Positions 58 to 31,101 of a DNA stretch of 40,089 bases are shown piece by piece. The DNA is taken from contig JAUNLE010000003.1 of NCBI GenBank assembly GCA_030532415.1, positions 11,107 through 51,195 of the forward strand. Reading direction: 5' to 3'. Origin of the DNA: Coriobacteriia bacterium (GTDB taxonomy: Bacteria > Actinomycetota > Coriobacteriia > Coriobacteriales > JAEZZM01). A program made the translations under genes and the position numbers. The notes under the pieces were generated by a model. It saw only the letters and a list, made by a program, of their open reading frames with translations. It did not search any database and was not told where the DNA came from. Each line of letters starts with the position of its first letter. Positions within the stretch are counted from its first letter, which is position 1.

Positions 58-1173
58 TTAATAGCGTGAAGACCTACCACCATTTCTTCGTCCTTCGTCA
101 AAAAATCCGAAGCATTCTAAGAAAATCGTTTTTGCCTTCACGTTAAATTGAGTGCAGGCTTCATCAAGTGCGTCTTCTATAATTTCTGCCATAGTGTCCG
201 ATTCACAGACAGCACGGGCGTTAATAATCAAAGCGAGTGAATAGTATTCTTGCTGTAAGACCTTATCGTGTTCGATATCATAATCAATTCCAATTAAGGA
301 AGACTTCAAATAGTCTTCTCCCTCACCTGCTGCAAATAATTTTAGGTGAGGAACATTTCTTTTTGCTTCGATAAGGCCATTTCTAATTTCTTCAATTAAG
401 AAATCAACAAACTCGTTAAAATCGATGTTTTTGCCGTCGCGCTCAGATAAGAAAACGCGGCGATTATACCAGCACATCAACTCTTCGGCAGAATCAAATT
501 CTTTAGAGCCATAACCAATTTCTTTATGTTCAGCTAAAGATTCATGCGTCATTAAATATTGGGCGAGCTCGTGAATTCCTTCACCTGTTTTCGCTGAAAT
601 TTCGAAAAGTTCTGCATCAGGATAGGCTTTTTTAATAAAGTCAACGAATTTTTTTCGCTCTTCATCAGAAAGTAAGTCAACCTTATTAAGTGCAATAACA
701 TCCGCTTCTGCCAACTGAGCATTAAGCAAAAAACGCATTTCTTCAGGAAGATGAATATCTTCACTTTCTGGTAGCACTAAGCGCATTCTCTCGGGATCAG
801 CTAAACATAAGAATGGAAGGAGGGTGTATTGATCAGGATATTCTTCTTTGAGCTTGATATACACATGGTCAAGCGCACCAATTCCGCTTCCCGGAATGTC
901 GCTCATAACTAATTGAGCTCCACCTTTTGCCAGGCGTTCTATATGATCAACAAGATCTTCGGTAACATAGCAAATGCAGTCACCGCGAATCTCAGCAATT
1001 TCAAGATCTTTTGTACGAGTATAGTCAGCATCGACTAAATTTTTTGCACCTAAGTCATTAGCAATAATGGCAGACTGCATTCCTAAAGCATTAAATTCGC
1101 GAGAAAGCGCTATCATCGAGGTAGTTTTTCCAGAACCTAAAAAACCACTAACAATCATATACTTTGTGCGCAC
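58..1173 (-). CDS. G3E-family P-loop GTPase (CobW/HypB/UreG-like metallochaperone)
   Basis: 371-aa ORF with N-terminal Walker A GFLGSGKTT and an NKVD guanine-specificity motif. GDCICY sits where COG0523 proteins carry CxCC. The GTG start at 1173 lies 7 nt after AGGAG and overlaps the TAA of the upstream gene, suggesting translational coupling. Confidence 0.75.
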   Translation of the reverse strand: MRTKYMIVSGFLGSGKTTSMIALSREFNALGMQSAIIANDLGAKNLVDADYTRTKDLEIAEIRGDCICYVTEDLVDHIERLAKGGAQLVMSDIPGSGIGALDHVYIKLKEEYPDQYTLLPFLCLADPERMRLVLPESEDIHLPEEMRFLLNAQLAEADVIALNKVDLLSDEERKKFVDFIKKAYPDAELFEISAKTGEGIHELAQYLMTHESLAEHKEIGYGSKEFDSAEELMCWYNRRVFLSERDGKNIDFNEFVDFLIEEIRNGLIEAKRNVPHLKLFAAGEGEDYLKSSLIGIDYDIEHDKVLQQEYYSLALIINARAVCESDTMAEIIEDALDEACTQFNVKAKTIFLECFGFFDEGRRNGGRSSRY

Positions 1174-1177
1174 AATA

Positions 1178-1909
1178 TTACTCCTTCATTGTTACTGGAT
1201 AATAAGGACATTGCTCCTTAATACATTCATTATTTCTCTTATAAAATGCGCAGCGTATTTGCTTTGGCATTTCAAAACTCACACCAAGTTCTTCTTCGAT
1301 ATATAAGCTTGCTTCCAGTAAGGCGGTGTATCCTGTTCTTTTGCAACAACGGCACCCACCAATATCAGCAATGGCTCCCAGTGCATTTGAAGTAAGTTTT
1401 AAAGGATGTTTCCACATCTTTTCATTCAGTGGAGTTGATCCGAAAATGATACTTGCCGCCTGTCCAACACTAGCAGCTGCCCCGCACACACCCCAATATC
1501 CGCAGGTTCCTCCAGGAACGAGAGCCGAACGATTTTTCAATTCTTCCAGTGCTTCTATCCTGTTAAATGTCTCATGCTTTTGCTCTTGTACATTATTTGC
1601 ATAAGCACTTATGAGTGCCGCACCAACCAAGGTATGATGTTCTGGACCATGAGGTGAAAAGCTTACGTCGCGCATCCCTTGATTGAGTATCGTAATTGGA
1701 TTTTTGCTATCGCTTTTCATCGTGAGTTCAAGTGCTTTTTCTACACCCTGTGCACGGTGACAATTGCTGCATATATAGTGCTCATCTTCACAACAACAAA
1801 GCGTCTTTTCGGATTTACCGCACACCATGCAAGTGAGCTCTTTTGCTTTTTGAAAATACATCAGAGGCTTTTCGCATATAAGACAATTTGCCTGCGCTTT
1901 TACTTCCAT
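1178..1909 (-). CDS. Cys-rich protein: N-terminal zinc-ribbon plus a CGAAxSxG-type motif (resembles C_GCAxxG_C_C / DUF5714-type proteins; family assignment tentative)
   Basis: 243-aa ORF. The N-terminus carries CLIC..CMVC..CCCEDEHYICSNCH, the middle GTCGYWGVCGAAASVG, and the C-terminus GGCRCCKR and CIKEQC. It is coupled to the downstream GTPase gene. Confidence 0.55.
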   Translation of the reverse strand: MEVKAQANCLICEKPLMYFQKAKELTCMVCGKSEKTLCCCEDEHYICSNCHRAQGVEKALELTMKSDSKNPITILNQGMRDVSFSPHGPEHHTLVGAALISAYANNVQEQKHETFNRIEALEELKNRSALVPGGTCGYWGVCGAAASVGQAASIIFGSTPLNEKMWKHPLKLTSNALGAIADIGGCRCCKRTGYTALLEASLYIEEELGVSFEMPKQIRCAFYKRNNECIKEQCPYYPVTMKE

Positions 1910-2141
1910 AGACCTACCGTTTCAATTATATTAAGAGCTCTTAGCGCGCTTATTTTTAGCAAGCACAAATAAGAACACTACTAGACAATATCTAATAATA
2001 GCTTCTCACGTTATTGTGTCAATCTTGTATAAGCGAGAAGCGCTAGACTGGTATCCACAGATAAAATAGATACGATGATTATTGTAACGTAAGCAAAAAC
2101 AAGCATAGTACTGATATAAATTCACCTCTAAAGGAGCTCAA

Positions 2142-2933
2142 ATGACATCCCACACATTTACCTTTATGGGAACGGGGGCAGGCTGTGGTGTTCCAGCCTT
2201 TTTCTGTGATTGCAAGGCCTGCGAAGAAGCACGGCACAATCCAAAAGCTCGCCGAGGCGATTGTTCGGTAATGATAACAGGCAGCAAAAAGGTACTCATC
2301 GATACCCCACCTGACCTTCGTCATTATCTTATCCGAGAAAATGTTCGCTCTATCGATAGGCTTTTGTATACTCATGCACACTATGATCACCTTGGTGGTC
2401 TTGGAGAGCTTGAATATATGTCTCGCTTATACACAAAAGAGCACATAAGTACCTACGCAAGCAATCGCGCTTTATCGACTATCAATCATGAGTTTCATTA
2501 TTTGAAAGATATTTTAGACGAGCATGAACTCGAGCCCTACGCTTCTTTTACCTATGATGACGTTAACTACACAGCACTGCCTGTACAACATGCTCCCGGA
2601 ACTTATGGATACCTTATTGAAACCCCAGCTACCAGGCTCTTTTATGCCTGTGATACCGGAAAGCTTCCCGATGAAACAGCAAAATTGGTAAAAGACTGCG
2701 ATATTTTAATTCTTGACGGAACATACTGGGAAAGAAGTTGGTCTCCTGAAACTCACAACAGCATTCAAGGTGCGATTGAACAGGCGTTTAAGCTGAATGC
2801 GAAGAAGTTCTACCCCACCCACCTCGCAATGCACTACGATACAGCTATAAGCTTGGCAGAACTTGAAGCCTATGTAGCGCAATACGAGGGGCGCGTTGAG
2901 ATTCCTTACGATGGTTTATCGATTGCTATTTAG
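2142..2933 (+). CDS. PhnP/PqqB-family MBL-fold metallo-hydrolase
   Basis: 263-aa ORF with RBS AAAGGAG 6 nt upstream. The N-terminal GTGAGCGVPAFFCDCKACEEAR resembles the PhnP structural-Zn motif (GTGGAQGVP..CxCxxC, from memory). It also has the HAHYDH (HxHxDH) MBL signature. Confidence 0.75.
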   Translation: MTSHTFTFMGTGAGCGVPAFFCDCKACEEARHNPKARRGDCSVMITGSKKVLIDTPPDLRHYLIRENVRSIDRLLYTHAHYDHLGGLGELEYMSRLYTKEHISTYASNRALSTINHEFHYLKDILDEHELEPYASFTYDDVNYTALPVQHAPGTYGYLIETPATRLFYACDTGKLPDETAKLVKDCDILILDGTYWERSWSPETHNSIQGAIEQAFKLNAKKFYPTHLAMHYDTAISLAELEAYVAQYEGRVEIPYDGLSIAI

Positions 2934-2954
2934 TTTATAAACCCGCTCAGTCGC

Positions 2955-3905
2955 CTAGGAACAGGAGCAAGAAGATGCTGCTGATGATTCATCTTCTTCA
3001 TCGGCAGCATAGGGAATGTTTCCACATCCAGGGAAAGGTCCATAGTGTACATGGCGATTTCCGGTAATCTTAAAATACTTGCCTACACGAGTATCTTGTA
3101 CCATAGCGCAAGAATTTCCACAGACATCCAGAGGAACATCTTTCTCAAAACGGTGATGGTCATCTAGGTCGTAAAATGCTCCAGCACCTTCTATACCACC
3201 TAAATAGGTAGCAGTTTGATTATATTGTTCGCAGAGGTCTTCAAGCTTATCTGGAAGTTTATAGGTTCTAAAGGTGCGTTTGAAGTAGGCAATATCGGCA
3301 AAGCGTTCATCTTGTATACGAAGAGGCCTTGTGCTCACGTGTCGTGTGGTCAACCAGCCTGCCTGGGTCATTAAGCGTCTAAAATCCTCTATATAAAGAG
3401 CATTTGACAAGCCATTGGGCTCTTCACCTTTTTTCTGGAGCAAATTAAGGGGAATGCGGCGGTCTGCAAAAATATCGCAGCCATAAAACTCGCCACCATA
3501 ATTAAGAACCCTGAACACTTCCGCTAAGGTTTTTTGCACATTGTTACAGCGTGACAAACTTCCATTACTTAAAACAACATCAATGCTTCCTGATTGAATT
3601 TTATTGAGCTCATCGAGCGGGAATGCAAAAAACTGGCAGTTTTCAGGGGCGTTTTTAAGAGCAATGTCGATTAAAGCTTCGTTTTCATCAACACCAATAA
3701 CAAGCCCATTTTCCCCTACCAACTTTGAGGCAATGTATGCATCACGACCTGCACCACAGCCCAAAACGAGAACTTTTGCACCTTCGAGCGCAAGCGGAAA
3801 AGGATAGCCAACACCCCTTGTGTGTTCTAGGACATCACTTGGAATGTCTTTTACAACTTCCTTCAGGTACTCTGGTACTGCTCCTGGTGAATATAAGTCT
3901 GCCAT
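2955..3905 (-). CDS. Class I SAM-dependent methyltransferase, ArsM (arsenite methyltransferase) fold
   Basis: 316-aa ORF. The SAM motif VLVLGCGAGRDAYIASKLVGENGLVIGVD and the downstream DIFADRR...NALYIEDFRRLMTQAGW are collinear with my recollection of ArsM. The positions of the three As(III)-binding cysteines appear substituted (see findings). RBS AAGGGG. Confidence 0.8.
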   Translation of the reverse strand: MADLYSPGAVPEYLKEVVKDIPSDVLEHTRGVGYPFPLALEGAKVLVLGCGAGRDAYIASKLVGENGLVIGVDENEALIDIALKNAPENCQFFAFPLDELNKIQSGSIDVVLSNGSLSRCNNVQKTLAEVFRVLNYGGEFYGCDIFADRRIPLNLLQKKGEEPNGLSNALYIEDFRRLMTQAGWLTTRHVSTRPLRIQDERFADIAYFKRTFRTYKLPDKLEDLCEQYNQTATYLGGIEGAGAFYDLDDHHRFEKDVPLDVCGNSCAMVQDTRVGKYFKITGNRHVHYGPFPGCGNIPYAADEEDESSAASSCSCS

Positions 3906-3937: not shown

Positions 3938-3973
3938 AAAAAAATCGACCTCCGCAAATATTCACGAAGGTCG
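3938..3973 (-). terminator. Rho-independent terminator (minus strand)
   Basis: On the minus strand, stem CGACCTTCG / CGGAGGTCG (9 bp, 1 mismatch) with a 10-nt loop, followed by T7. The T-run ends only about 33 nt upstream of the methyltransferase ATG. Confidence 0.6.
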
Positions 3974-4005
3974 AAAAGAAATAACTATAGTAGTCAGAAT
4001 GTAAA

Positions 4006-4216: not shown

Positions 4217-5977
4217 TTAGTCTTCTAGTTGATCAGCCAAAATTTCTCTAAGTTTTTGAGGAAGTATCTGAGGATTAAAAACAAGTTGCGTATGTTTGGT
4301 AATAGGGTTTCCCGCAAATTTACCTATATTAATATGTCCTACATATACTTGCGGTGGCATATTCAAAACTGCTTTTCTCGCCTTAAAAGCATCAGCAAAC
4401 ATACCATCGCCAACAATCAGGCATAAAATTTTTCGTTTAGGATCAACATTAGCAGTAGCTTGAATGTACTTTAGCGCACCTGCAACAATCGTCTGCTCAC
4501 CTGTTGGATGCAAGAGACATTCATAGGCCGTTTGCACTTTTTCTTTTGGATGATAGGTAGCAAGTTCGGTTAAAGGTGCCCACCCTGCAGCAAAGGCAAT
4601 AAGCTGGGTGCGAACATCAATACCAGCTCCGTGATGAAGTGTCTGGGCTTTTTCGAATGCTCTCTCTAAACCTCGAATTAGGCAATATGCCATGTCAGTA
4701 GCCGAACGAGCCTTTTCTCCTCTCATAGAACTCGAAATATCTAGCAGCAAGAATACGTCCATTCCTTCGAATAGCCTGTCTTGCATACGGATATCTTTTT
4801 TTATCTTTTGCCAAATGGGCTGAGGTGTATCAGACTCAAGTGCTCTCATAAGTGCAATTTGAGCATTGGGGTGGATACGAGATCCACTGTATGACATGCG
4901 AGATGCATAACGTGGAACCATCAGCGTCTCCTGGGGATGCGCGATTTGTAAAAGCAAATCAGAAATTTGCTCAATCTCCATCTCCCAGTCGCCCATCTTA
5001 ATCTCTTGTGATTGTTCAGATTCACGAATTTCCATTGAACCGATTTGCGTTTGATCTTTTCGATTAATGGTATTCATGGTGGGAGACTGCGAGTCATCTG
5101 GTTCACTGCGACTTTGAATCAAAAGGTCAATATTACCTTTTTCCATAGCCTCAAGAGCACCATCAATACGATTTTTGTAATCGTGTTCATCTCTCATATG
5201 TGATTCATCAGAAAATGACTGCATTGAAGCAGAATAATCATCTTCTAACTCATAGAGGTTGAGGAAATTCCACGCATCTTGCGTATCTAGGTCAATACGC
5301 AAAAGAGTTTCGTATGGTTTCCACAAAAGGCGTTTTGCCATTTCATGGCGGTCAGTATAACTCAACGACAAGTCTTTAATGTAGCTCTCAAATTCGTTGG
5401 TTAAATCCGTATGCTCAGGTATGGTTCCTATATAGCGTAAAATTAATGGATGAATAACGGCCTGCAGATTCGATTCGAACACATAAAATTTCAGTGCCGA
5501 TAAAAACTGCATATGAAGCGGGTTATTGCGCATAACATGAGGAGCTTGACGCGATAAATATTGATCCATACGCTTTTTAGCGTAAGGTATATGCTCCATA
5601 CGAGCTAATGCAGCCATTTTATCGATTTTCGAATGAAAGTAACGCTCATACTGATCGTTGCGGCATAGCCTTACAGGCTCATGTTTCACGAAAGTCTCGT
5701 CGGTATAATCATACAGCTGCTCAAGATGCTCAAGAATAAACATCGTGTCTATTTCTTCGAGCGTTAAATGACCCTGCACACCATATCGATCCAAGGCAAC
5801 GTTTGCTAATTTTTCGGACTCGTTAGGATTAAACTGGCATACGATACCTTCGCTCGTGACCATAGCTGCAGACTTCACGTCTTCGCTTATTCGAATTGAA
5901 ATCCTCTTAAAACCTAAGACATTGGCAATCGTTTCAATTTTTTTATTTAATGAGGCAGCGCGTTGAATGGCAGACAT
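4217..5977 (-). CDS. von Willebrand factor A (VWA) domain protein, NorD/CbbO/CoxE-like architecture (long N-terminal region plus C-terminal VWA)
   Basis: 586-aa ORF. The C-terminal VWA has MIDAS DxSxS (VFLLLDISSSMRG) and a later VGDG segment. Its ATG is 2 nt after the TAA of the upstream AAA+ gene. Confidence 0.8.
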   Translation of the reverse strand: MSAIQRAASLNKKIETIANVLGFKRISIRISEDVKSAAMVTSEGIVCQFNPNESEKLANVALDRYGVQGHLTLEEIDTMFILEHLEQLYDYTDETFVKHEPVRLCRNDQYERYFHSKIDKMAALARMEHIPYAKKRMDQYLSRQAPHVMRNNPLHMQFLSALKFYVFESNLQAVIHPLILRYIGTIPEHTDLTNEFESYIKDLSLSYTDRHEMAKRLLWKPYETLLRIDLDTQDAWNFLNLYELEDDYSASMQSFSDESHMRDEHDYKNRIDGALEAMEKGNIDLLIQSRSEPDDSQSPTMNTINRKDQTQIGSMEIRESEQSQEIKMGDWEMEIEQISDLLLQIAHPQETLMVPRYASRMSYSGSRIHPNAQIALMRALESDTPQPIWQKIKKDIRMQDRLFEGMDVFLLLDISSSMRGEKARSATDMAYCLIRGLERAFEKAQTLHHGAGIDVRTQLIAFAAGWAPLTELATYHPKEKVQTAYECLLHPTGEQTIVAGALKYIQATANVDPKRKILCLIVGDGMFADAFKARKAVLNMPPQVYVGHINIGKFAGNPITKHTQLVFNPQILPQKLREILADQLED

Positions 5978-5979
5978 TA

Positions 5980-7419
5980 TTACCCCAAGAGTACCTGTAT
6001 TTGCTGCGCAATCTCGAAGTTCTTATGAGAACCTGCTTGATCTAGGTTGTGCAAAATCTTTGTTATAAGGTTGTCATCCAAGCGTTTACCTGGTAAGTTT
6101 CCTTCACTTGCATCACTTACAACGCGATACAATGCACGAGGAGTAATACAGTCGCTCATCAATGATTCTGCATCATTTTGAGTTTGTGTCTTCATATCGT
6201 TTTCTTCAAAAACTGCAATAACGTCTTTTGCAGGATTTGAATAGAGATATTGGGTTGCAAATGCTAAACGAGTGAATTTTTCGAGCTGATCGAGGTCTAT
6301 ATATTCACTAGGTAAGCCATCATAGTCACATGCAGCAGCATAAGCCATGCGCATAAGAGTGTCGGAAGTCTCTAAGAAACTTGTATTGTGAGCATCTGGA
6401 TAGTGTCTAAAAACAATATCAAAACGGTCACGCAAAGCAGGATCTAAAATCTCACGGTGCTTATAGCGAACTGAAGCCTCATTTGCAGTTGCAAACACAG
6501 CAAATCCGTGAGCAATGGTTACGAACTCACCTTTTTCTTGAATGAATACTTTTTCGCCTGGCTCTCTTAAGAGTAGGTCTTGCAAACGAGCGATAATAGC
6601 TTGATCACCGAAGTTAATTTCATCAAGTAAGAGCGGCTTACCCTCTCTCATAGCCTTGAGTAAAACACCATCGACAAACACAAAGGTTTTATTCTTTGCA
6701 TCATGCTCAATTTTTCCGATAAACTCATCACTCATCATATCGCCTTTGATTGACAAGATTAAAGGCTCATCGGTATAAAGACTCATAACAAACTTGACTA
6801 TTTGGGTCTTTGCAATACCCTTATCGCCAACGACTAGTGTTGGATGAGAGTTTAAGATATTACTTATGATTTGGTTTATATCGGCAAGCGTATCTTCATC
6901 GAATAGCAAACCATAGGTCTCAAGGGTGTATTTATCCCAAATAGCTTGAGCTTGTCGTACTGAATCCTCATCGCTTTTCTTTATAAGTTCATCTAAAAGC
7001 TCTTTTTGTTGAGAAATACTTTTGACATAAAATTCAAGTTCATCGGCCGTAAATTCCCTGCCAACAATATTTGCCACAAGCATAGATTTCCATAACAATA
7101 AGTATGAATTAAAGAATGCAATATGTTGCTTATATAGCTCAGTTGCGACTTGGTTTTTCTGTTTAATGACAGATAGCTGTTTAGCAAGACTCTCAAAAAG
7201 ATTGCGAATAAGTTCAGCCTTATCCGAATCATGTTCTTGTGTCTTAAGGGCAAGATCTTTAACTTGTCCATCAGAGGAAACGAACTCTTCTAAATTGTCT
7301 AGCGTGATATCTACATCATAGCTTTGAAGTGCAGATACAAATTTTACTAGCTTTTGTTTTTGCAATTCTGAAATAGCAGTATCGTTGAGCTCTTGAGATT
7401 GAATAGTAATGTTGGACAT
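5980..7419 (-). CDS. AAA+ ATPase of the MoxR/AAA_5 (NorQ/CbbQ/CoxD-like) type with an N-terminal helical extension of about 190 aa
   Basis: 479-aa ORF with Walker A VVGDKGIAKT, Walker B PLLLDEINF, sensor-1 FATANE and an ALRDRF arginine motif typical of AAA_5. Confidence 0.8.
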   Translation of the reverse strand: MSNITIQSQELNDTAISELQKQKLVKFVSALQSYDVDITLDNLEEFVSSDGQVKDLALKTQEHDSDKAELIRNLFESLAKQLSVIKQKNQVATELYKQHIAFFNSYLLLWKSMLVANIVGREFTADELEFYVKSISQQKELLDELIKKSDEDSVRQAQAIWDKYTLETYGLLFDEDTLADINQIISNILNSHPTLVVGDKGIAKTQIVKFVMSLYTDEPLILSIKGDMMSDEFIGKIEHDAKNKTFVFVDGVLLKAMREGKPLLLDEINFGDQAIIARLQDLLLREPGEKVFIQEKGEFVTIAHGFAVFATANEASVRYKHREILDPALRDRFDIVFRHYPDAHNTSFLETSDTLMRMAYAAACDYDGLPSEYIDLDQLEKFTRLAFATQYLYSNPAKDVIAVFEENDMKTQTQNDAESLMSDCITPRALYRVVSDASEGNLPGKRLDDNLITKILHNLDQAGSHKNFEIAQQIQVLLG

Positions 7420-7458
7420 ATTTATTCTTTCTTTAGAAATGGATAGTGTTACCTAATA

Positions 7459-7659
7459 TTATGTACCAAATTTTGTTTTATTTTGATACGTAATAGCGCA
7501 ACTCATTGGTGACTTGACGATAGCCTTTCGCTTATTCGGATTCTTTGCGATTGCGCCAACAGGACAAACCTTAGAACACAACATACATCCAACGCAAGCT
7601 TCTTCATCAATTTCAATAAACCTGCGAACCATGAACATTGAACGTTGTGGACCGTGCAT
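7459..7659 (-). CDS. Small single-cluster ferredoxin-like protein
   Basis: Contains IDEEACVGCMLCSKVCPVGAI (CxxCxxCxxxCP) plus one distal Cys. I prefer the ATG at 7659, preceded by AAGGAGG, over the ORF-track start at 7674, which lies inside that RBS. Confidence 0.65.
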   Translation of the reverse strand: MHGPQRSMFMVRRFIEIDEEACVGCMLCSKVCPVGAIAKNPNKRKAIVKSPMSCAITYQNKTKFGT

Positions 7660-7680
7660 GAAACCTCCTTTCAATAAAGA

Positions 7681-7716
7681 AAACCGGTAGCTTTATAATA
7701 TCAACAAGCTACCGGT
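7681..7716 (-). terminator. Intercistronic hairpin / possible partial terminator between the Mo enzyme and ferredoxin genes
   Basis: Perfect 10-bp stem AACCGGTAGC / GCTACCGGTT with a 16-nt loop. On the minus strand it is followed by TCTTTATT and then the ferredoxin RBS. Confidence 0.4.
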
Positions 7717-7772
7717 TTTCAATTAAATTAAGGTCTTACTGTTTTAAACTTCGTCTTAATCCTCTATCGGAC

Positions 7773-10562
7773 TTATTCAGTAATACCGTTGTTAATCTGA
7801 ACGTCAGATTCTGGAGTCTCAGCGTACTTAACTCTGCGGTCAGTGAAGAGTTTCTTCTCGTCGTCAGAGATTTGGCTCTCGTCAAGCTTTCTGAGTTCTA
7901 CGCAGCCAAGCTTGTCGAATTGATCGTTGAAGTAAGTACCACCGTTGAGGTAGTCAGCTCCAGTGAACCATTGATCGGTACGATCTGCAGGATCGATGCA
8001 TGGATATACGCGGCAGAGTAAACCACGGGTTGTCCAGGTAGCGGTTGCAGCATCTGAACCCTCAACAGAACCATCAACAAGTACGTTAACGTTAGAGATG
8101 AACGCACCTTGGTTCCATGGATCCTCAGCTGGGAGCTCTGGATACCACCATGAAGGCATTGCTTGAACAGTACCCTTGATGATAGCTTGGTCAACGTGAG
8201 CAACTTGCTTAATACGTCCGCGCTCGTTCTCAATCCATACCCACTCACCATCACGGATACCATACTTACGTGCATCCTCACGATGGATGTATACAGAAGG
8301 ATAAGGGAAGATTGAACGGGTACCTTGACCAGGAACACGGTTCTCTGAGTGATAGAGAACAGATACACGACCACCGGTGGTTAGACGTAGTGGATACTTC
8401 TCTGCTAACTCTGGATCAGATAATGGAGTTTCTGGAAGCTCGTGGTAGTAAGGTAATGGGCTGTATCCAAGGTCTTCCATGAAGCATGGAACAATCTCTG
8501 CCTTACGTGATGGAGTAGCGAAACCGCAAGTCTGACCGTTTGGTAAAGTTTCTGCATACTTGTAGAAACGGGTGGTGCTTGGGAAGTAAGTACCTTGCTC
8601 AACTAATTGATCATAGGTTAAGTCAGTACCACGTGAGATACGGAACTTAATGAGGTCCTCGTAGGTCTCCCATGGCCATTGCTCTTCTTCACCAAGACGG
8701 ATACCGAGTTTACGGAAGAAGTCGTAGTCCATGATACGATCGCCAACTGGCTTAGAACCACGGTCACCGCAAACTGAGAAGTCGTTAGCATCCTCAGCAG
8801 TGGTGTAGCATGGACGCTCAAGTGAGTCACAAGCAGGGATGATGTAGTCAGCTAAAGCAGCTGCTGGCGTCTTCCAGTACTCAACATCAACGATGAGTTC
8901 CATGTCCTCTTTCATGATCTTCCATAAACGCTTAGGATCTGGAGCCCATGCCATTGGGTTAGATGACCAAATGATCATACCCTTTACTGGATATGGATCG
9001 CCGAACTCCATTGCGTCGTACATTAATACTGGTGAGCAGAGGAGTTGGTGAAGCATTGGACGAGGTACACCGTGGATCTTACGATACTCGCGGTCGATAA
9101 TCTCGAATCCTTGCCAGCTCATTGCACGGAAGTGATCCCAACCGATGTATTTCTTACGAACCTCAGGATCTACAACCTCAGACATTTCGAGCTCAGAGTC
9201 ACGATATGGGAAGTGCTTGGTTCCGTCAAGATCAGGTACAGGACCAGGTTCACCTACGTACTCACCGCCAGGAACGTCGATGTAGTTGAGGATGATACGC
9301 ATGATGGTCTTGGTGATACAGAGGTTTGAAGCGTTAGGACCGTGTTGGTCACCACCGCCAAGACCCCAAGTAATGAAGCCGTGACCGTTAGTTGCATATA
9401 CGCGAGCAGAATCAATAATCTTGTTCTCAGGAATACCAGTGATAGGTGATGCCCATTGTGGAGTATATGGCTCAGCCATTTCCTTAACAGCTGCCCATGC
9501 AGTGAGACATTCTACCTTGCTACCGTCTTTTAAGGTAACAGTGAATTCACCGTCGATAGCAGCATCAACAGCGCCATCTTTCTTGTATGCGTTAATATCT
9601 GAGTTCCATACGAGAGGAGCGTTTTCTTCTTGATCCCAGACGATGAAGTTACCGTGCTCTTCACCCTCGAATACTTCGTCTGCACGAAGGAGGTGTCTGT
9701 TCTCTTTGGTCATCAAGAATACACCGTTTGACCAGTATTTGATGAAGTCGGTGTTATACCATTCATTCTCGATGATTTGGTTTAACCATGCAAGTGATAA
9801 TGCGTGGTCGGTACCTGGATAAATTGGGAGCCAGATATCAGCAAGTAATGCTTGGGTGGTGCAGTATGGATCAATAACGATCATCTTAGGCTTTTTGCCT
9901 GGACGGTTCATAGCTGCTAAATATTGACGCCACATTGGTGATTGAGGACCATATTTCTCAGAAGCACTCAAACCCCAGATAACAAAGGTATCAGCATAGT
10001 CGATACCAACTGGTGAGAGAGCCTCGATTGGCCAACCAACCATAGCCATGTTGAGTGAGTAGTTCCAGCACCAGCAGATAGTACCAGGATCGCAAACGTT
10101 ACCTGGGTTACCAAGGTAGTTCATGAAACGAGTACGTGACCATAGGTGATCTGAACGATAAGTACCCTCGAAAGATACAAGAGTCTCAGGACCATATTTA
10201 GCGATTAACTCTTTGATCTTGTCAGCAATTTCATCCATTGCTTGCTCGAGAGGAATTTCTTGCCATCTATCCTCACCACGTTTACCAATACGCTTCATAG
10301 CGTGGTTAATACGCTTTGGATGATAGTGCATCTGGATAGCTTTTTGTCCTTTTTCACCGATACGGTCACAAAGAACAGTACCCTCTTTCCAGTTAGGTTT
10401 GATCTCGACAATTCGATCAGTTTCGGTATCTACACCAATAACGATACCGCAGTTGAGGTGACAATAAAAGCAACGTGAATACGTCCATTGTACGCCATGT
10501 TCATCAACATACTTGTTAGGCATGTCGTAAGGCAACACAATTTGCTTTCTTTCTTCCGCCAT
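7773..10562 (-). CDS. Molybdopterin (bis-MGD) oxidoreductase, DMSO reductase family, cytoplasmic type (MoOx-1)
   Basis: 929-aa ORF with N-terminal FS0 motif CFYCHLNC...C (Cx2Cx3C..C). It has the typical KRINHAMKRIGKRGEDRWQEIPLEQAMDEIA segment and the C-terminal TTRGLLCRVY end of the MopB barrel, followed by a 74-aa tail. No twin-arginine signal. RBS AGGAGGGGG. Confidence 0.9.
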   Translation of the reverse strand: MAEERKQIVLPYDMPNKYVDEHGVQWTYSRCFYCHLNCGIVIGVDTETDRIVEIKPNWKEGTVLCDRIGEKGQKAIQMHYHPKRINHAMKRIGKRGEDRWQEIPLEQAMDEIADKIKELIAKYGPETLVSFEGTYRSDHLWSRTRFMNYLGNPGNVCDPGTICWCWNYSLNMAMVGWPIEALSPVGIDYADTFVIWGLSASEKYGPQSPMWRQYLAAMNRPGKKPKMIVIDPYCTTQALLADIWLPIYPGTDHALSLAWLNQIIENEWYNTDFIKYWSNGVFLMTKENRHLLRADEVFEGEEHGNFIVWDQEENAPLVWNSDINAYKKDGAVDAAIDGEFTVTLKDGSKVECLTAWAAVKEMAEPYTPQWASPITGIPENKIIDSARVYATNGHGFITWGLGGGDQHGPNASNLCITKTIMRIILNYIDVPGGEYVGEPGPVPDLDGTKHFPYRDSELEMSEVVDPEVRKKYIGWDHFRAMSWQGFEIIDREYRKIHGVPRPMLHQLLCSPVLMYDAMEFGDPYPVKGMIIWSSNPMAWAPDPKRLWKIMKEDMELIVDVEYWKTPAAALADYIIPACDSLERPCYTTAEDANDFSVCGDRGSKPVGDRIMDYDFFRKLGIRLGEEEQWPWETYEDLIKFRISRGTDLTYDQLVEQGTYFPSTTRFYKYAETLPNGQTCGFATPSRKAEIVPCFMEDLGYSPLPYYHELPETPLSDPELAEKYPLRLTTGGRVSVLYHSENRVPGQGTRSIFPYPSVYIHREDARKYGIRDGEWVWIENERGRIKQVAHVDQAIIKGTVQAMPSWWYPELPAEDPWNQGAFISNVNVLVDGSVEGSDAATATWTTRGLLCRVYPCIDPADRTDQWFTGADYLNGGTYFNDQFDKLGCVELRKLDESQISDDEKKLFTDRRVKYAETPESDVQINNGITE

Positions 10563-10680: not shown

Positions 10681-10721
10681 GATGATTTTTTAGACTACTA
10701 GTAGGGTGATGCCTAGGGTGA
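10681..10721 (-). promoter_or_regulatory. Candidate operator/promoter module A: TCACCCT-N5-TCACCCT-N11/12-AAAAATCATC
   Basis: The minus strand reads TCACCCTAGGCATCACCCTACTAGTAGTCTAAAAAATCATC. It lies between the LuxR stop (10733) and the MoOx-1 start (10562). A near-identical module occurs at 13667-13706. Confidence 0.45.
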
Positions 10722-10732
10722 CAGCCCTTTAG

Positions 10733-13453
10733 CTAGGATAATGTACTTTTCTTAAAAGCGTCCACTCTATTGTTTACCTCGAGTTTTTGGTAAATATGGG
10801 CAATATGTGTTTTCACAGTATTTAAGGAGATATTGAGCGACTGGGCGATTTCTTTTCTCGACAGGCCCAAATTAAGGAGTTCTAGAATCTCATTTTCACG
10901 ATCGGTTAAATTCGCATCGAATGAAGCTTCTGCAACTGCCTCGGTTTCTTGGTTATCGCCGAAATTACGCAGAATATTTCGGATGAAGTTTTTGGCAGAC
11001 CAATTACTTTTACTGGTGTTAAGCACTTCATGCAAAAGCACGTGCATCTTATCTCCTGCATAAACAAAGACGTCCATCTCTTTATTTTGTTCAGCAAGAC
11101 TTAAGAGACGATTGAGCTCTTTTTTTGCCTGGCCTGATTTTCCAAGCTCTTCTAAGGCCATCACCCGTAAAGTTCTTCCATTGAGTTCAGATGAAATTAA
11201 ATCAAGCTGGATTGCTCGTGCTATAAAGTTTTGAGAGTCTTCTAAAACCTTTTCAAACTTTCCCATCTTATAGTCAATCCAGGAGAAGATAAGCTCGCCT
11301 TTCAGACGGACAATAGGGTTATTGCATGCATTTTCCACAATCATCGCTGCTATATCTTTTGCCTGGTCGTAGTAGCCCATTTCAAAGACAATCTGAGCGT
11401 AAATAAGGTTACCTAAGAAATTTACTCCCCTTGGCAGGCTTTGCGGTTTAATTTCTACCGCCGCCTTGGTGACTAAGTTAAAGGCCTTTTTCTGTTGTGC
11501 AATCATATTAAGATAGAGTGCCTCAATAAATTTAAGCTCGAAATACATATCTATATTTCTTGTTTTAGACAGTCTCTTCTTCGCGCGCTTTAAATACGTT
11601 GAAGCCTCATCCAGACGACCTGTCTTAATACATATATATGCAAGGGCAGTATTCAAGGCACCGTACAGCGAAAAATCTGGAGGACAAACCTGGAGCGTAT
11701 CGCGACACATTTGTTCTGCATCCTCATACTTACCAGAAAGTATGTGCGTCCAACAAATACCAAGACTGCTAAATATAGCGAAAAACTTCGAATGAGCTAA
11801 TTCGGAAAGCGAATGAGACTCAAGATAATACTTTTCGGCTAAAACAAAGTTTCCCGCATATTGATAGGCTTCAGCCAAATCATAGATAATGATGCATTTC
11901 AAAGCATGAGGTAGGCTATCTTTATAGTCTTGTAATAGCTGTTCGTGCTGGTCAATAAGGTATTGGTATTCTCCACGCAAACCTTCACACTTAACCAAGA
12001 CATAGCGCTGTATAAGTGTGATCATTTTTGGATCAAAATAAAATACCGTATGCCGCTCATCAAACAAAATGGTTTGACCTTGGGCGAGCCTATAGTCTTC
12101 CATAAAGATATTGAGCCACTCAAGCAGTTCTTCTCTTCTACCTGCACATAAGTAGGCCCACATTACGAACATTGCTGTGAATGCATTCGTTTTGATTTGC
12201 TCGGCATTCATCTCACAAATGTCCATATAAAACTTGATATTAGAGCTCTCTTTCATAACCGTAAGCGGAGCGCTCAGATTTTTTATGTAGTCGAAATCGC
12301 TTGAGAGCAGCAAAAATTTTACTGCCTCGTACTTTTGACCATCTTTCTCAAACCACTCACTTGCCAAATAGGAAAGCTGCCTAATTGAGTCAAGACGAAT
12401 CTGCATGAGTTTGTTTCTTAGCCAGCGTGAAAATACTGGATTGAACTCATACCAACCGACTTGTTTTGGGTCTTCTTCGATAAATAGATTGAGTTTTAAA
12501 AACTTGTCTAAAACGACCTGAGCATCGTATCTGTCGAGCATGTAATTGCACAAGGATGCATTACAGCGCAAAAGCAGTGATGACTCTACGAGAAACTCTG
12601 AATCCAAGTTACTAATGGGCAAATCATCAAGACAGGCGGTGAAGAAGTTATGTACAAGTGAATTTAAGACATCCTTATCAAGATGCTCGGTTTGAGGCAG
12701 CTCATCGTGGGCCGCTGCCTCTATATAGGTATAGGTTCCTAAAAACCAACCCTTCGTATAGTCATAAAGTTCATCAAGTACGCTGCTTTCAAGTAGTTGT
12801 GGCGCATGCTCTTGTGCGATAAGAGCGGTTTCTTCTTTTGATAAATTAAGCGCATCATTGGCGAAGACATAAACGAAATTTCTAAAGTCTGCACGTATGA
12901 GCGTGCGCGTAAAGTAATTTTCAGCTATCACAAGATGAAATTTAGGCGGCATATACGAGCAGAAGTCATTAATAAAATCTACTGACTTATTGAAATCAAG
13001 CTTGTCGAAATTATCTAAAAAGATAACGACATCTTTGCTTTTCGGATTGCTGCTATATCTATAAAGAGCATTACTTAGGGCAAGTAAAAACTCTTCGTTT
13101 GTCGCAAAATCTTCTTCAAACAGGTCATCAAGCTGGCCTTTTTCGAAAATATTGCTCAGCCCTTGCAAGAGATAGTACTTTAAATTTTCGAAGGTCACAG
13201 CAGTGCCATCAATGGTAAGCCACATCTCATGGAATGCATCTTCAGATAAGGAATTGTAACAATCATATAAAAAGCTTGTTTTACCACTTCCTGGAGGTCC
13301 CTGAATTATGAGTATTTTGTAGTCAATGAGCCGATTGAATTCTTGAACTAATCGATCTCGTTTTTCAAAACGATTGGAATTATAAGGAGGTATTAGCCTG
13401 CTTAAAACAAGTGTTGGTTTCTTGTGGCCCTCTTGCGTATCAGCCATGTACAT
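10733..13453 (-). CDS. MalT-like LuxR-family transcriptional regulator (N-terminal P-loop NTPase, TPR-like middle, C-terminal LuxR HTH)
   Basis: 906-aa ORF with Walker A GPPGSGKTS near the N-terminus. The C-terminal LTDRENEILELLNLGLSRKEIAQSLNISLNTVKTHIAHIYQKLEV is a canonical GerE/LuxR HTH. Confidence 0.9.
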   Translation of the reverse strand: MYMADTQEGHKKPTLVLSRLIPPYNSNRFEKRDRLVQEFNRLIDYKILIIQGPPGSGKTSFLYDCYNSLSEDAFHEMWLTIDGTAVTFENLKYYLLQGLSNIFEKGQLDDLFEEDFATNEEFLLALSNALYRYSSNPKSKDVVIFLDNFDKLDFNKSVDFINDFCSYMPPKFHLVIAENYFTRTLIRADFRNFVYVFANDALNLSKEETALIAQEHAPQLLESSVLDELYDYTKGWFLGTYTYIEAAAHDELPQTEHLDKDVLNSLVHNFFTACLDDLPISNLDSEFLVESSLLLRCNASLCNYMLDRYDAQVVLDKFLKLNLFIEEDPKQVGWYEFNPVFSRWLRNKLMQIRLDSIRQLSYLASEWFEKDGQKYEAVKFLLLSSDFDYIKNLSAPLTVMKESSNIKFYMDICEMNAEQIKTNAFTAMFVMWAYLCAGRREELLEWLNIFMEDYRLAQGQTILFDERHTVFYFDPKMITLIQRYVLVKCEGLRGEYQYLIDQHEQLLQDYKDSLPHALKCIIIYDLAEAYQYAGNFVLAEKYYLESHSLSELAHSKFFAIFSSLGICWTHILSGKYEDAEQMCRDTLQVCPPDFSLYGALNTALAYICIKTGRLDEASTYLKRAKKRLSKTRNIDMYFELKFIEALYLNMIAQQKKAFNLVTKAAVEIKPQSLPRGVNFLGNLIYAQIVFEMGYYDQAKDIAAMIVENACNNPIVRLKGELIFSWIDYKMGKFEKVLEDSQNFIARAIQLDLISSELNGRTLRVMALEELGKSGQAKKELNRLLSLAEQNKEMDVFVYAGDKMHVLLHEVLNTSKSNWSAKNFIRNILRNFGDNQETEAVAEASFDANLTDRENEILELLNLGLSRKEIAQSLNISLNTVKTHIAHIYQKLEVNNRVDAFKKSTLS

Positions 13454-13666: not shown

Positions 13667-13706
13667 TCACCCTTTGTATCACCCTTAAAAAAGCACAAAA
13701 ATCATC
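13667..13706 (+). promoter_or_regulatory. Candidate operator/promoter module B: TCACCCT-N5-TCACCCT-N11-AAAAATCATC
   Basis: The plus strand reads TCACCCTTTGTATCACCCTTAAAAAAGCACAAAAATCATC, 60 nt upstream of the ATG at 13767. A possible -10 TATTAT lies 34 nt further downstream. Confidence 0.45.
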
Positions 13707-13766: not shown

Positions 13767-14354
13767 ATGGATACATGTACTGTTTGCGGAACTGAAAAAG
13801 TTGACTTAGTAAAAAATGGCTTTCCGTTTTGTTTGTCTTGCTACAACAAGTCCATGGCTAATGCGTATGGGCATCAAGAAATCAAAGAAATAGAGAAGCT
13901 CGAAGTGGTGGATGAACATGGTTTTGCACACACTTTTAAGCTTGAAGGCTATTCTTTGGGTCAAGACATTCAATGGGGAGCATTTGAATGCTTAGATGAA
14001 GAGGCGCGAAAAAACGGGCGCCAAGGATATGAGTTTAAAATTATAGAGGACTCTCAAATTCCACAAGACGAAGCGGTCGAAAAACTTAGAAGCATCGTTT
14101 TACATAATATGAAAAACACCTCACTTAAGAAAACTGAAAGCCCATTTTATGATGAAACCTTGTTAAGTCGTGATGATTTTCATTTTTCATTAAATGATGA
14201 AGGCTTTGCATACATAAGTGTGGGTAAAGATAATACATTAAAGCTTATTATTGACGGATATGAAATAAGCTCCGATGAGTTTTTGAAAATGCTTTCACGT
14301 ATGGAGGCCTACCAATTCCATTGGAAATTTAGTGATTCATGGGAAAACTCTTAA
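13767..14354 (+). CDS. Hypothetical protein with N-terminal zinc-ribbon
   Basis: 195-aa ORF with RBS GGAAGGGGGA and an N-terminal CTVCG...CLSCY. No family recognised for the remainder. Confidence 0.6.
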   Translation: MDTCTVCGTEKVDLVKNGFPFCLSCYNKSMANAYGHQEIKEIEKLEVVDEHGFAHTFKLEGYSLGQDIQWGAFECLDEEARKNGRQGYEFKIIEDSQIPQDEAVEKLRSIVLHNMKNTSLKKTESPFYDETLLSRDDFHFSLNDEGFAYISVGKDNTLKLIIDGYEISSDEFLKMLSRMEAYQFHWKFSDSWENS

Positions 14355-14387
14355 GCATTTTCCCTTAGCAAGAAAGAGAGAATAAGT

Positions 14388-15383
14388 ATGGCATCAGACC
14401 ACAAATCAGCAATGAAATTTCCTGAAATTGAGCTTAGTTCATATGAACCAGTTCAAATTACCTTAAAGAAAATCGAAATTTCAGACAAGGATATAGAAGA
14501 CCGCATGCGTCAAAATGCTAACAGTTTTGGCATGACCTATGCTGATAGCCCTGAGACCGAGGTGTCGGAGACTTCAATTGTTGATTTTGACTTGCAAGTT
14601 GATTTAAACGGAAAAGACATTCCAAATCTTACTGGTAAAAACCGTATGCTCGATTTAAACGTACCAATGATGCCTCAAAGTTTTAACGATGAAATTATTG
14701 GTATGAAAGTGGGAGAAACCAAGGAATTTATCTTTAATACTCCTGGTAATGCTGATCTTGAGAGCGAAAATACGACTACCGACTTCCACGCAGTTGTAAC
14801 TATTAACAAAATCAAAGATCGCGTTGAGCCTGAAATCACTGATGAATGGGTTAAGCAGTATATTCCTTTTGTAAATACTGTTGAAGAATTCCGTCAACAA
14901 GCTCGTGATGAAATTCAATCAGAGATTAATGAGTTTGCAAAAAATGAGAAGATTTCTCAGGCTGCTAACAAATTATCTGAAAGATTTGAAGGTAAAGTTG
15001 GAGACGAACTTTACAAGCAAGTTATGGACGATTTAAAGAACACCTATGAGCAACAAGCACAATCAATGGGTCAAACTCTTGAAGAAGCCTTGAAAGAACA
15101 AGGTAGCAGCATGCAACAATTCACTATGACCTTGATGATGCAAGCTCGTCAAACCGTACGCCAAGGTTTATCGCTTGATGCATGGGCTCGCCATTATAAC
15201 ATCACTCCAAAAGACAACGACATCAATATGATGTTAGAGACTATGTATCCTGGCCAAGGTCAACAAATGCGTGAGCAGTTCAATGAAAACCCAGAACAAC
15301 TCGAAGGTTTAGAAATTGCTGCACGTAGATATCTAGCTAACATGGATGTTGTGGCTAAAGCGCAAGTTGTATACGAAGATTAG
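14388..15383 (+). CDS. Trigger-factor-like chaperone lacking the N-terminal ribosome-binding domain (PceT/RdhT-like architecture)
   Basis: 331-aa ORF. It is collinear with the trigger-factor linker, the FKBP-like domain (VDFDLQVDLNGKDIP...GMKVGETKEF) and the C-terminal arm domain. No GFRxGxxP ribosome-docking signature is present. Confidence 0.8.
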   Translation: MASDHKSAMKFPEIELSSYEPVQITLKKIEISDKDIEDRMRQNANSFGMTYADSPETEVSETSIVDFDLQVDLNGKDIPNLTGKNRMLDLNVPMMPQSFNDEIIGMKVGETKEFIFNTPGNADLESENTTTDFHAVVTINKIKDRVEPEITDEWVKQYIPFVNTVEEFRQQARDEIQSEINEFAKNEKISQAANKLSERFEGKVGDELYKQVMDDLKNTYEQQAQSMGQTLEEALKEQGSSMQQFTMTLMMQARQTVRQGLSLDAWARHYNITPKDNDINMMLETMYPGQGQQMREQFNENPEQLEGLEIAARRYLANMDVVAKAQVVYED

Positions 15384-15392
15384 GAGGTAGAC

Positions 15393-15707
15393 ATGGCAGC
15401 AGATTCCCAAAATAAGGATAATCTTACTAATGATGATGTAAGAATTGTTGAAATAAAGGCACCAGGTTCAGACAAGGTTATTACCAAAGAGGTGCGAGAA
15501 GAAAAGCCAGAGGTTACTTGTCCAAACTGTGGTTCAAATGATGTTACCTTTACTCATTCCCCTATTAGCTACACGATCTTAACGTGTACCTGCAACGATT
15601 GTTCAGAGCGCTTTACCTGGGATACCCTTGATAAAAAAGCTCTCGATACTGAAAAAGACAGGATATCAAGTAAGCCTTACAAAGGTCCATATCCTCCTTT
15701 TTTATAG
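15393..15707 (+). CDS. Small zinc-ribbon protein
   Basis: 104-aa ORF with RBS AGGAGG 5 nt upstream and CPNCGSNDV...CTCNDCSERF (4-Cys ribbon). Confidence 0.6.
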   Translation: MAADSQNKDNLTNDDVRIVEIKAPGSDKVITKEVREEKPEVTCPNCGSNDVTFTHSPISYTILTCTCNDCSERFTWDTLDKKALDTEKDRISSKPYKGPYPPFL

Positions 15708-24294: not shown

Positions 24295-24303
24295 TATCAA
24301 CCT

Positions 24304-30312: not shown

Positions 30313-31101
30313 ATGGACAGCTCTGTCAATCATGGAAAAAATTTGGCCATGGCGTTTTTATTTGGAGGGACCTTTGCGCTTATTGGACAAATTATTTTAT
30401 CACTGGTAGCTCCTATTTCAGGACCGGCATTCGCAGGACCCATTACCTTACTGTGCTTTGGTGTTATCGCCTTAGTCATGTACATCCCAGGCATTCATCA
30501 CAAACTAGCACCATTAGCTGGCTTTGGTCTTATTTTGCCTTTTAATGGATTTGCAAGCGGTATTGCAGATGCATTTCAAGCAGGCTACCTTCCAAAAAAG
30601 GATTTCTCATCAGGTCTTCGCTCAGCTCTTAAACTTTTCTTTATAGTCATTGGTATCGGTGGACTTATAGACTTTCTTGCTGGAGTATTTGGATTTTACG
30701 TAAGTCTTCCGCAAATTACTCCGCCAGAAGCTCTTACTGGCGTTGCAGCTTTGATTGGAGCCTTCCTCGTAGGTGGAGGACTTTGCGTGGTGTTCCAGCT
30801 CTTTTTAGAGTTCACAAAGGTTCCTGTACCAGTGCTGCTTGTTTGCGGTTTAGCCTTAGGTGGTATTTGCACCTTATTCGGATTAACCGATATACTAGCT
30901 TCTCTTGGTGGTGGCGGATTTACCATCTTAGTTGTTGGAGCAGGACAGGCCGTCACTCTTACGACGATGCTTTTAATGCAAGGTCAACCCATGATGCTTT
31001 TGCTCGTGCTCTCAATTTTTGTAACCTTGTTCGTCGTGGGTATTATCTGCGCACTTGGAAATGCTGCTCTCAAACCATCTGACAATACAAAAACCGCATA
31101 G
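30313..31101 (+). CDS. Membrane protein with two tandem SpoVAC/SpoVAEB-like domains
   Basis: 262-aa ORF. AFLFGGTFALIGQ...AGFGLILPFNGFASG is followed by a second copy, AFLVGGGLCVVFQ...GGGGFTILVVGAGQA. Both resemble the SpoVAC/SpoVAEB signature (FLVGGxICxIGQ...AGAGxxVPxxGF, from memory). RBS AAGGGGAG. Confidence 0.55.
   Translation: MDSSVNHGKNLAMAFLFGGTFALIGQIILSLVAPISGPAFAGPITLLCFGVIALVMYIPGIHHKLAPLAGFGLILPFNGFASGIADAFQAGYLPKKDFSSGLRSALKLFFIVIGIGGLIDFLAGVFGFYVSLPQITPPEALTGVAALIGAFLVGGGLCVVFQLFLEFTKVPVPVLLVCGLALGGICTLFGLTDILASLGGGGFTILVVGAGQAVTLTTMLLMQGQPMMLLLVLSIFVTLFVVGIICALGNAALKPSDNTKTA

Follow-up and report, generated by a model that had tools for sequence, protein, structure and literature searches.

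A pair of genes encoding a MoxR-type AAA_5 ATPase and a partner with a C-terminal VWA domain was found beside the gene of a bis-molybdopterin guanine dinucleotide (bis-MGD) enzyme of the dimethyl sulfoxide (DMSO) reductase family in a Coriobacteriia bacterium (contig JAUNLE010000003.1, positions 11,107 to 51,195; the whole stretch analyzed, 40,089 nucleotides [nt] long, is called the window here). [quoted passage not shown] The pair very probably belongs functionally to the regulon of the Mo enzyme, while the chances that it acts in the maturation of the enzyme itself, as judged by analogy, are about even. As a tentative reading, we propose a NorQD-like machine, derived from a protease-linked three-gene system, that would be needed for loading the cofactor of this soluble bis-MGD enzyme or for exchanging it.

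The maturation of DMSO-reductase-family enzymes is thought to rest on small chaperones of the TorD/NarJ type, and to our knowledge ATP-driven MoxR/VWA machines are known for other metal centers only (NorQD, CbbQO, CoxDE, and the chelatases). An initial annotation, made by a model from the letters of the window, had supposed that such a pair was previously undescribed as a partner of a DMSO-reductase-family enzyme, and this agrees with our literature searches, in which no published description of a MoxR/VWA partner of such an enzyme was found. Entries for an "AAA family ATPase," a trigger factor, or a VWA protein are absent from the supplementary tables of PMC7028382.

The ATPase, the VWA protein, and the molybdoenzyme

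The genes of the Mo enzyme, a small ferredoxin, the ATPase, and the VWA protein all lie on the minus strand, and their open reading frame (ORF) coordinates match those listed in the initial annotation, which had also correctly read the gene order, the ATPase and MIDAS motifs, the 2-nt gap at the ATPase-VWA junction (TAA-TA-ATG), and a hairpin behind the Mo gene. The ATPase (479 amino acids [aa]; 5980..7419, minus strand) was divided by Pfam, motifs, and AlphaFold2 (AF2)/Foldseek analysis into a helical N-domain (residues 1-190) and an AAA+ module (residues 190-479). In the hidden Markov model searches that had been suggested for both proteins, AAA_5 scored 66.7 bits in the ATPase, far above its cutoff of 22, while a CbbQ_C-type domain was absent from this protein according to Pfam, zero NCBIfam families matched it, and the VWA matches of its partner stayed below threshold. 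Because the AAA_5 match spans only residues 194-333, the extra N-terminal helical region of about 190 aa noted at the outset is real. The ATPase contains GDKGIAKT, LLLDEINF, FATANE, and ALRDRF, motifs that are largely invariant among 17 relatives, with Walker A at 6805-6828 and Walker B at 6610-6633 (minus strand); residues G198, K204, T205, D266, E267, T311-N313, and R332 are invariant, and R330 is nearly so (≥90%). The AF2 model (mean predicted local distance difference test [pLDDT] score 82) matched NorQ in Foldseek with template modeling (TM) scores of 0.80-0.83 (E 1e-11) and CbbQ with 0.73-0.79, and a sequence profile of the ATPase searched against PDB sequences retrieved the AAA domains of midasin (1e-56), CobS (8e-5), and NorQ (1e-5).

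The VWA protein (586 aa; 4217..5977, minus strand) consists, according to alignments and AF2/Foldseek analysis, of an N-domain (residues 1-240), a low-confidence linker (residues 244-325), and the C-terminal VWA domain. Its Pfam matches within residues 407-513 were all subthreshold (VWA, 19.3 versus 23.8 bits; VWA_2, 18.3 versus 27 bits), and the domain is nonetheless established because of its motif and its fold. The MIDAS is complete (D413-x-S415-x-S417, T496, and D524), with the DISSS segment located by alignment at 4727-4741 (minus strand); in an alignment of 29 sequences, D413, S417, T496, and D524 are invariant, and S415 is nearly so (≥90%). The top Foldseek matches of the AF2 model (pLDDT 81) were NorD chains, followed by generic VWA domains and the MIDAS domain of Rea1. 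The alignments with NorD covered 263-288 columns, about the size of the VWA region, with query-normalized TM scores of 0.25-0.28. With the full model as the query, VWA matches dominated, and neither a metallopeptidase nor any other fold for the N-domain appeared among the top matches. In addition, Pfam and NCBIfam returned nothing for the N-domains of the ATPase and the VWA protein or for a third protein of ∼300 aa that accompanies the pair in other lineages. At the level of predicted folds, a Q/D-type pair is a fair description of the two proteins, as the initial annotation had maintained: the ATPase model matches NorQ and CbbQ, and NorD stands at the top of the structural matches of the VWA model.

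The neighboring Mo enzyme (929 aa; 7773..10562, minus strand) is acetylene-hydratase-like according to Pfam and PDB sequence searches. The Pfam families Molybdopterin and Molydop_binding were above threshold and Fe4S4 was weak, and the top PDB sequence match was acetylene hydratase (2e7z, E 1.8e-85). A twin-arginine motif (RR) is absent from the N terminus, where the first cluster cysteine is residue 31; among the four [4Fe-4S] cysteines, C38 and C65 are invariant in the alignment, and C31 and C34 are nearly so. Identity to orthologues in Gordonibacter and other Eggerthellales is 73-79%. Because acetylene hydratase is the closest match, no signal for twin-arginine translocation (TAT) is present, and a small 4Fe-4S protein is encoded next to it, the protein is, to judge by its sequence, a cytoplasmic bis-MGD enzyme of the acetylene-hydratase/Gordonibacter-type catechol-dehydroxylase class. 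The soluble "Gordonibacter-type" catechol dehydroxylases are characterized by the absence of a TAT signal and by an adjacent small 4Fe-4S protein (PMC7028382; bioRxiv 10.1101/2025.01.17.632430), and, by gene context, the Gordonibacter orthologue apparently differs from the Gordonibacter enzymes published so far. Sequence conservation of the Mo enzyme is unusually high, with 73-90% identity among the window, L001, L005, L041, and L121 in genomes that span 41-66% GC, and its partners diverge much faster (regulator, 29-55%; ATPase, 47-79%; VWA protein, 31-57%).

The acidic tail of 74 aa at the end of the Mo enzyme had been regarded in the initial annotation as a possible ligand of the MIDAS. Over its first ∼38 residues, the tail is an acidic extension found throughout the family, including homologues that lack the pair, such as P0146 with a net charge of -8. 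Its last ∼35 residues occur in the window only and are absent from the other pair-linked orthologues. A role as a specific MIDAS ligand therefore finds no support.

Between the Mo gene and the pair lies the gene of a mini-ferredoxin of 66 aa (7459..7659, ATG at 7659, minus strand), which was recognized by Pfam (Fer4) and by alignment with six orthologues. It is an orthologue, in truncated form, of the small 4Fe-4S protein that accompanies enzymes of this class; the six aligned orthologues are 73-99 aa long. It keeps a single CxxCxxCxxxCP motif and five cysteines, and the second motif is present in all six orthologues. To judge from these residues, the protein may bind one cluster at most, or it may be decaying.

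Linkage of the pair to the molybdoenzyme and a shared promoter motif

Loci were gathered from the ATPase in a genome scan and from the Mo enzyme in a metagenome scan, complemented by contig look-ups, and all of them were then screened by tblastn. Results revealed that the pair lies beside an orthologous Mo enzyme (73-79% identity to that of the window) in four distinct gene orders. With MalT denoting a regulator gene, Fdx the ferredoxin gene, AAA5 the ATPase gene, and VWA that of its partner, these are MalT-Mo-Fdx-AAA5-VWA in the window; MalT-AAA5-VWA-Mo in L121; Mo-MalT-trigger-factor-like, divergent from AAA5-VWA, in several species or strains of Gordonibacter (L001, L014, L018, and L122); and Mo-(GerE)-Fdx, convergent with VWA-AAA5, in L005/L012 and L041/L029. 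The remaining neighbors of the pair and the Mo enzyme are different in each arrangement, the ATPase-VWA pairing was found in all loci with enough DNA, and the identity matrices of the Mo enzyme, the ATPase, the VWA protein, and the MalT-like protein grouped the loci in a broadly similar way, the window diverging most. Four gene orders, changing neighbors, and broadly matching matrices indicate that the linkage of the pair and the enzyme is old and has outlived several rearrangements.

The regulator gene, directly upstream of the Mo gene in the window (10733..13453, minus strand), encodes a MalT/LuxR-type STAND protein of 906 aa (Pfam GerE, TPR_MalT, and AAA_16; NCBIfam MalT, E 3e-48), and a MalT-like gene stands beside the orthologous Mo gene in all loci examined. 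A motif scan revealed a tandem repeat, TCACCCT-N5/6-TCACCCT, that points in the direction of transcription and is placed 75-190 nt upstream of start codons. The 40-kb window contains only two perfect copies, compared with a chance expectation of 0.14 matches at ≤2 mismatches. One of them (TCACCCTAGGCATCACCCT; 10703..10721, minus strand) lies 141-159 nt upstream of the ATG of the Mo gene, and the other (TCACCCTTTGTATCACCCT; 13667..13685, plus strand) lies 82-100 nt upstream of a divergent operon; at the Mo promoter as well as at this operon, the repeat is followed at equal spacing by AAAAATCATC. The motif precedes the orthologous Mo gene in each of the eight lineages checked (8/8), and it also occurs before the ATPase gene in L121 and four Gordonibacter loci, and upstream of the trigger-factor-like gene or operon in the window and in Gordonibacter. 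It is absent at loci of Mo-enzyme homologues with 54-57% identity, and its background frequency is 0.016-0.029 per kb. We infer from this distribution that the motif is the putative operator of the MalT-like regulator and that the pair is probably in the same regulon as the Mo gene in at least two arrangements. A variant, TTACCCT-N5-TTACCCT, was observed at the equivalent position upstream of a 56% Mo-enzyme homologue (L044, 9838-9856), which hints that related operators may form a family for MalT-like regulators.

The divergent operon (13767..15707, plus strand) encodes, according to Pfam, a DUF7685/7686/7713 protein (13767-14354), a trigger-factor-like protein of 331 aa without the ribosome-binding domain (14388-15383; Trigger_C, E 1e-17), and a Zn-ribbon protein (15393-15707), all on the plus strand. 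The trigger-factor-like protein aligns with residues 112-418 of E. coli trigger factor. Such genes also stand beside the orthologue in Gordonibacter and beside many of the 54-57% homologues, and within this enzyme family they are more frequent companions than the pair. The absence of a TorD/DmsD/NarJ-like chaperone from the window, as stated in the initial annotation, was upheld in so far as Pfam matched no chaperone of this type in 30 ORFs of the window (among those of ≥100 aa, all except two; smaller ORFs lay outside the scan), but a chaperone candidate of another kind is present in this operon, which carries the motif of the Mo gene. The domain makeup of the trigger-factor-like protein fits a dedicated chaperone of the PceT type, for which it is a candidate. 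Similarly, PceT/RdhT of the reductive dehalogenases is encoded beside a cofactor-rich reductase, and it is likewise a trigger-factor paralogue without the ribosome-binding domain (PMC8905343). PceT differs in that it binds a TAT leader, which the Mo enzyme of the window lacks.

Within the window, folding places a strong terminator-like hairpin with a U-run in the interval that separates the Mo gene from the ferredoxin gene (7679..7720, minus strand). Its stem of 15 bp precedes UUUUCUUUAUU, its z-score versus shuffles is -6.7, and the 116-nt intergenic RNA that contains it has a fold energy of -38.8 kcal/mol. A promoter scan found a sigma-70-like, TG-extended site with 10/12 matches that overlaps the hairpin (7722-7695, minus strand). 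The ferredoxin gene is separated from the ATPase gene by 39 nt, where a terminator scan detected no terminator, and the Mo-Fdx-AAA5-VWA unit is closed by a strong intrinsic-terminator-like site with a 13-bp stem and T7 (3945..3974, minus strand). Expression of the pair in the window is thus predicted to depend on read-through of the hairpin or on the promoter-like site overlapping it. Since the ferredoxin that the enzyme needs is encoded past the hairpin, only 39 nt before the ATPase gene, the pair may be coupled to the Mo gene.

Origin of the pair, its proposed role, and alternatives

The VWA protein family is small, with 79 clusters (50% identity) matching among 1.84 billion representatives. 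Outside Coriobacteriia, it occurs mainly in Saccharibacteria, and also in one Family XIII metagenome-assembled genome (MAG) and one Treponema MAG, where the usual unit consists of three genes that encode the ATPase, a fast-evolving protein of ∼300 aa, and the VWA protein. This rare three-gene system was found at L007, L011, L024, L028, L030, and other Saccharibacteria loci, at L009/L010, and at L124, and no matches to it were found in Pfam, PADLOC, or the literature. In nearly all relatives outside Coriobacteriia, the N-domain of the VWA protein carries the motif HE[LVIF]GH, which was found in 0 of 16 Coriobacteriia-type loci and in 1 of the 14 closest representatives. The N-domain of the window's protein is related to this HExxH domain, but the zinc-binding motif itself is not present, and the aligned position reads ILEHLEQLYD. 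A profile of the HExxH N-domain gave weak, motif-centered zincin matches in PDB and Pfam (ACE, E 0.1-0.5; Peptidase_M91 in 5 of 10 members). Likewise, four cysteines conserved in the ATPase N-domain of the non-Coriobacteriia relatives are lost in the aligned Coriobacteriia-type members, and neither the window nor the Coriobacteriia loci contain the third gene. These patterns suggest that the pair descends from a three-gene system of the Saccharibacteria type, the Coriobacteriia branch having lost that third gene as well as the HExxH motif and the ATPase cysteine cluster, and that a protease-linked AAA+/VWA system probably became a nonproteolytic remodeling pair in the branch that joined the Mo-enzyme locus.

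Among described systems, NorQ/NorD, which inserts FeB into cytochrome c nitric oxide reductase, resembles the pair most closely. Both consist of an AAA_5 ATPase followed by a larger protein with an N-domain, a linker, and a C-terminal VWA domain with a complete MIDAS, the genes adjoin those of the client enzyme, and NorQ and NorD are the top structural matches of the two window proteins. However, identity is only ∼16%, the ATPase of the window has the additional 190-aa helical N-domain, the N-domain of its VWA protein is related to the HExxH domain, and its putative client is a soluble bis-MGD enzyme, whereas that of NorQ/NorD is a membrane-bound relative of the heme-copper oxidases. The Rubisco activase CbbQ/CbbO likewise pairs an AAA_5 hexamer with a VWA/MIDAS adaptor to remodel an enzyme that is already complete, and CbbQ is a strong structural match, but the ATPase of the window lacks the Pfam CbbQ_C domain, and the clients and N-domains are unrelated. 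CoxD/CoxE, which matures the Mo-Cu center of CO dehydrogenase, is the sole MoxR/VWA pair that has been described as serving a molybdoenzyme (PMC2997495, PMC4240915). CoxD belongs to the AAA_3/MRP type and has a xanthine-oxidase-family enzyme as its client, in contrast to the AAA_5 ATPase and the putative DMSO-reductase-family client considered here, and VWA_CoxE matches were marginal and confined to relatives. The AAA_5 domains of midasin/Rea1 are the closest by sequence among solved structures (by the profile search above), and midasin has such domains coupled to a MIDAS domain, which docks onto the ring (PMC13036017), but it is a single eukaryotic protein of 4,700-4,900 residues that functions in ribosome biogenesis. 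Finally, the catechol dehydroxylases of Eggerthella lenta need cluster-specific, coregulated accessory genes for active enzyme (PMC11887054), which makes a role of the pair as an accessory factor plausible. Compared by description, the accessory proteins DadhD-H are likewise cluster specific and coregulated and serve the same enzyme clade; they comprise a helicase-domain protein, a hypothetical protein, a TorD-like chaperone, and ferredoxins, their clients are TAT-exported membrane complexes, and an AAA_5/VWA pair is not reported among them.

The client of the pair, its mechanism, and the step that it assists are proposed here by analogy with these systems. The pair would be the accessory module of one regulon under the MalT-like regulator, which would further comprise the bis-MGD enzyme with its small ferredoxin and the trigger-factor-like chaperone operon. 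As in NorQD, the ATPase ring would hold the VWA domain, and the MIDAS of the VWA protein, together with its degenerate N-domain, would grip the apo- or inactive Mo enzyme. ATP hydrolysis would then open the Mo enzyme, so that a cofactor, either bis-MGD or the [4Fe-4S] cluster, could be inserted or exchanged.

Several observations weigh against this proposal. In the window, the strong hairpin and the promoter-like site stand between the pair and the Mo gene, and the motif is absent before the ferredoxin-ATPase unit; the convergent loci L005 and L041 also lack a full motif before the ATPase gene. Two Coriobacteriia pairs (L013, from a Raoultibacter MAG, and L123) have no Mo enzyme within 3-9 kb and sit among sulfatase, TetR, and transporter genes, with no motif found nearby; their ATPases nest within the linked clade, which suggests a secondary separation. 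Conversely, the motif and the ferredoxin are present at the 70%-identity orthologues L119 and L120, where a pair is lacking within 6-10 kb, and ∼35 loci with 54-57% homologues, mostly from the human gut, are also without the pair, many of them with an adjacent trigger-factor-like gene; it follows from these loci that the enzyme class has no general need of the pair. In addition, ∼20 loci of Saccharibacteria and other bacteria carry the pair without a Mo enzyme nearby, and the trigger-factor-like chaperone alone could meet the need for a chaperone. The linkage of the pair to the Mo enzyme, which the initial annotation had proposed to check, therefore holds for four gene orders, with the motif shared in two of them, but it is not universal.

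The pair might instead be a member of the regulon with another role or client, such as the reactivation of inhibited or damaged enzyme, the assembly of the enzyme with the ferredoxin, or the remodeling of the MalT-like or the trigger-factor-like protein. Linkage and the shared motif speak to regulon membership only and not to the client, the MalT-like gene is always adjacent, CbbQ, whose complex with CbbO reactivates Rubisco, is among the structural matches, and the pair-less orthologues suggest that basic maturation proceeds without the pair. We consider this explanation somewhat unlikely, as metal insertion is the process served by NorQ and NorD, which are structurally nearest to the pair (PMC13036017).

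It is unlikely that the pair is an autonomous module, for example one for protein processing or quality control inherited from the HExxH-bearing ancestor, whose position near the Mo gene merely reflects inherited synteny in one bacterial family. Such independence would be in line with the predominance of the family in Saccharibacteria, where no Mo enzyme is nearby and the ATPase and the VWA protein always occur together with or without the ∼300-aa protein, and with the unlinked copies L013 and L123 and the hairpin and promoter-like site upstream of the ferredoxin-pair unit in the window. However, the adjacency has outlasted at least three rearrangements while every other neighbor changed, a promoter motif specific to the orthologues precedes the ATPase gene in two arrangements, and the loss of the protease motif coincides exactly with the linked branch.

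An antiphage or conflict system of the MoxR-vWA type, as might be suggested by the existence of MoxR-vWA ternary conflict systems with an N-terminal vWA domain, variable C-terminal effectors, and a VMAP or iSTAND third gene (PMC7159879) and by the L009/L010 relative among transposase, ParB, resolvase, and HipA genes, is very improbable, since PADLOC was negative for every component, the VWA domain is C-terminal here, the VMAP/iSTAND partner and the variable effectors are absent, the Coriobacteriia loci are without a third gene, and the ATPase was found on only 1 of 2.9 million viral contigs. A phage origin of the pair was rejected on the same count of viral contigs.

Genomic surroundings and biological significance

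The window has a GC content of 41%, and its best named relatives belong to Eggerthellaceae/Coriobacteriales. Beyond the terminator of the four-gene unit, the region 58-3905 encodes a CobW-like GTPase, a DUF5714 protein (weakly similar to the metal-binding family MbdU), a PhnP-like metallo-beta-lactamase (MBL) hydrolase, and an ArsM-like methyltransferase with a cysteine-rich C terminus; this cluster looks like a metal or metalloid handling module, every NCBIfam match being under its cutoff. Three further bis-MGD enzymes are encoded at 22078-24300, 27588-29819, and 37665-39857, and among their contexts one includes CCG-domain proteins, one a Fer4_11 protein, and one both Fer4_11 and NrfD proteins (Psr/Phs-like). 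Two more LuxR-type regulators (25382-27043 and 31317-34076) and a SpoVAC/SpoVAEB-like membrane protein (30313-31101, plus strand) were also identified.

Gut-bacterial enzymes of the Mo-enzyme clade act on dietary polyphenols and neurotransmitters, and their expression in active form is very difficult. If the pair does serve the Mo enzyme as proposed, it would be the first maturation factor driven by ATP in the DMSO-reductase superfamily and would add a new class of clients to those of the MoxR/VWA pairs. Moreover, it could help to explain the poor heterologous expression of gut catechol-dehydroxylase-type enzymes, for which the ATPase, the VWA protein, and the trigger-factor-like protein are named here as candidates for coexpression, and the candidate operator TCACCCT-N5/6-TCACCCT could be used for mapping the regulon. 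From an evolutionary perspective, the family may exemplify the loss of the catalytic motif from a protease-bearing AAA+/VWA system upon its attachment to an enzyme locus.

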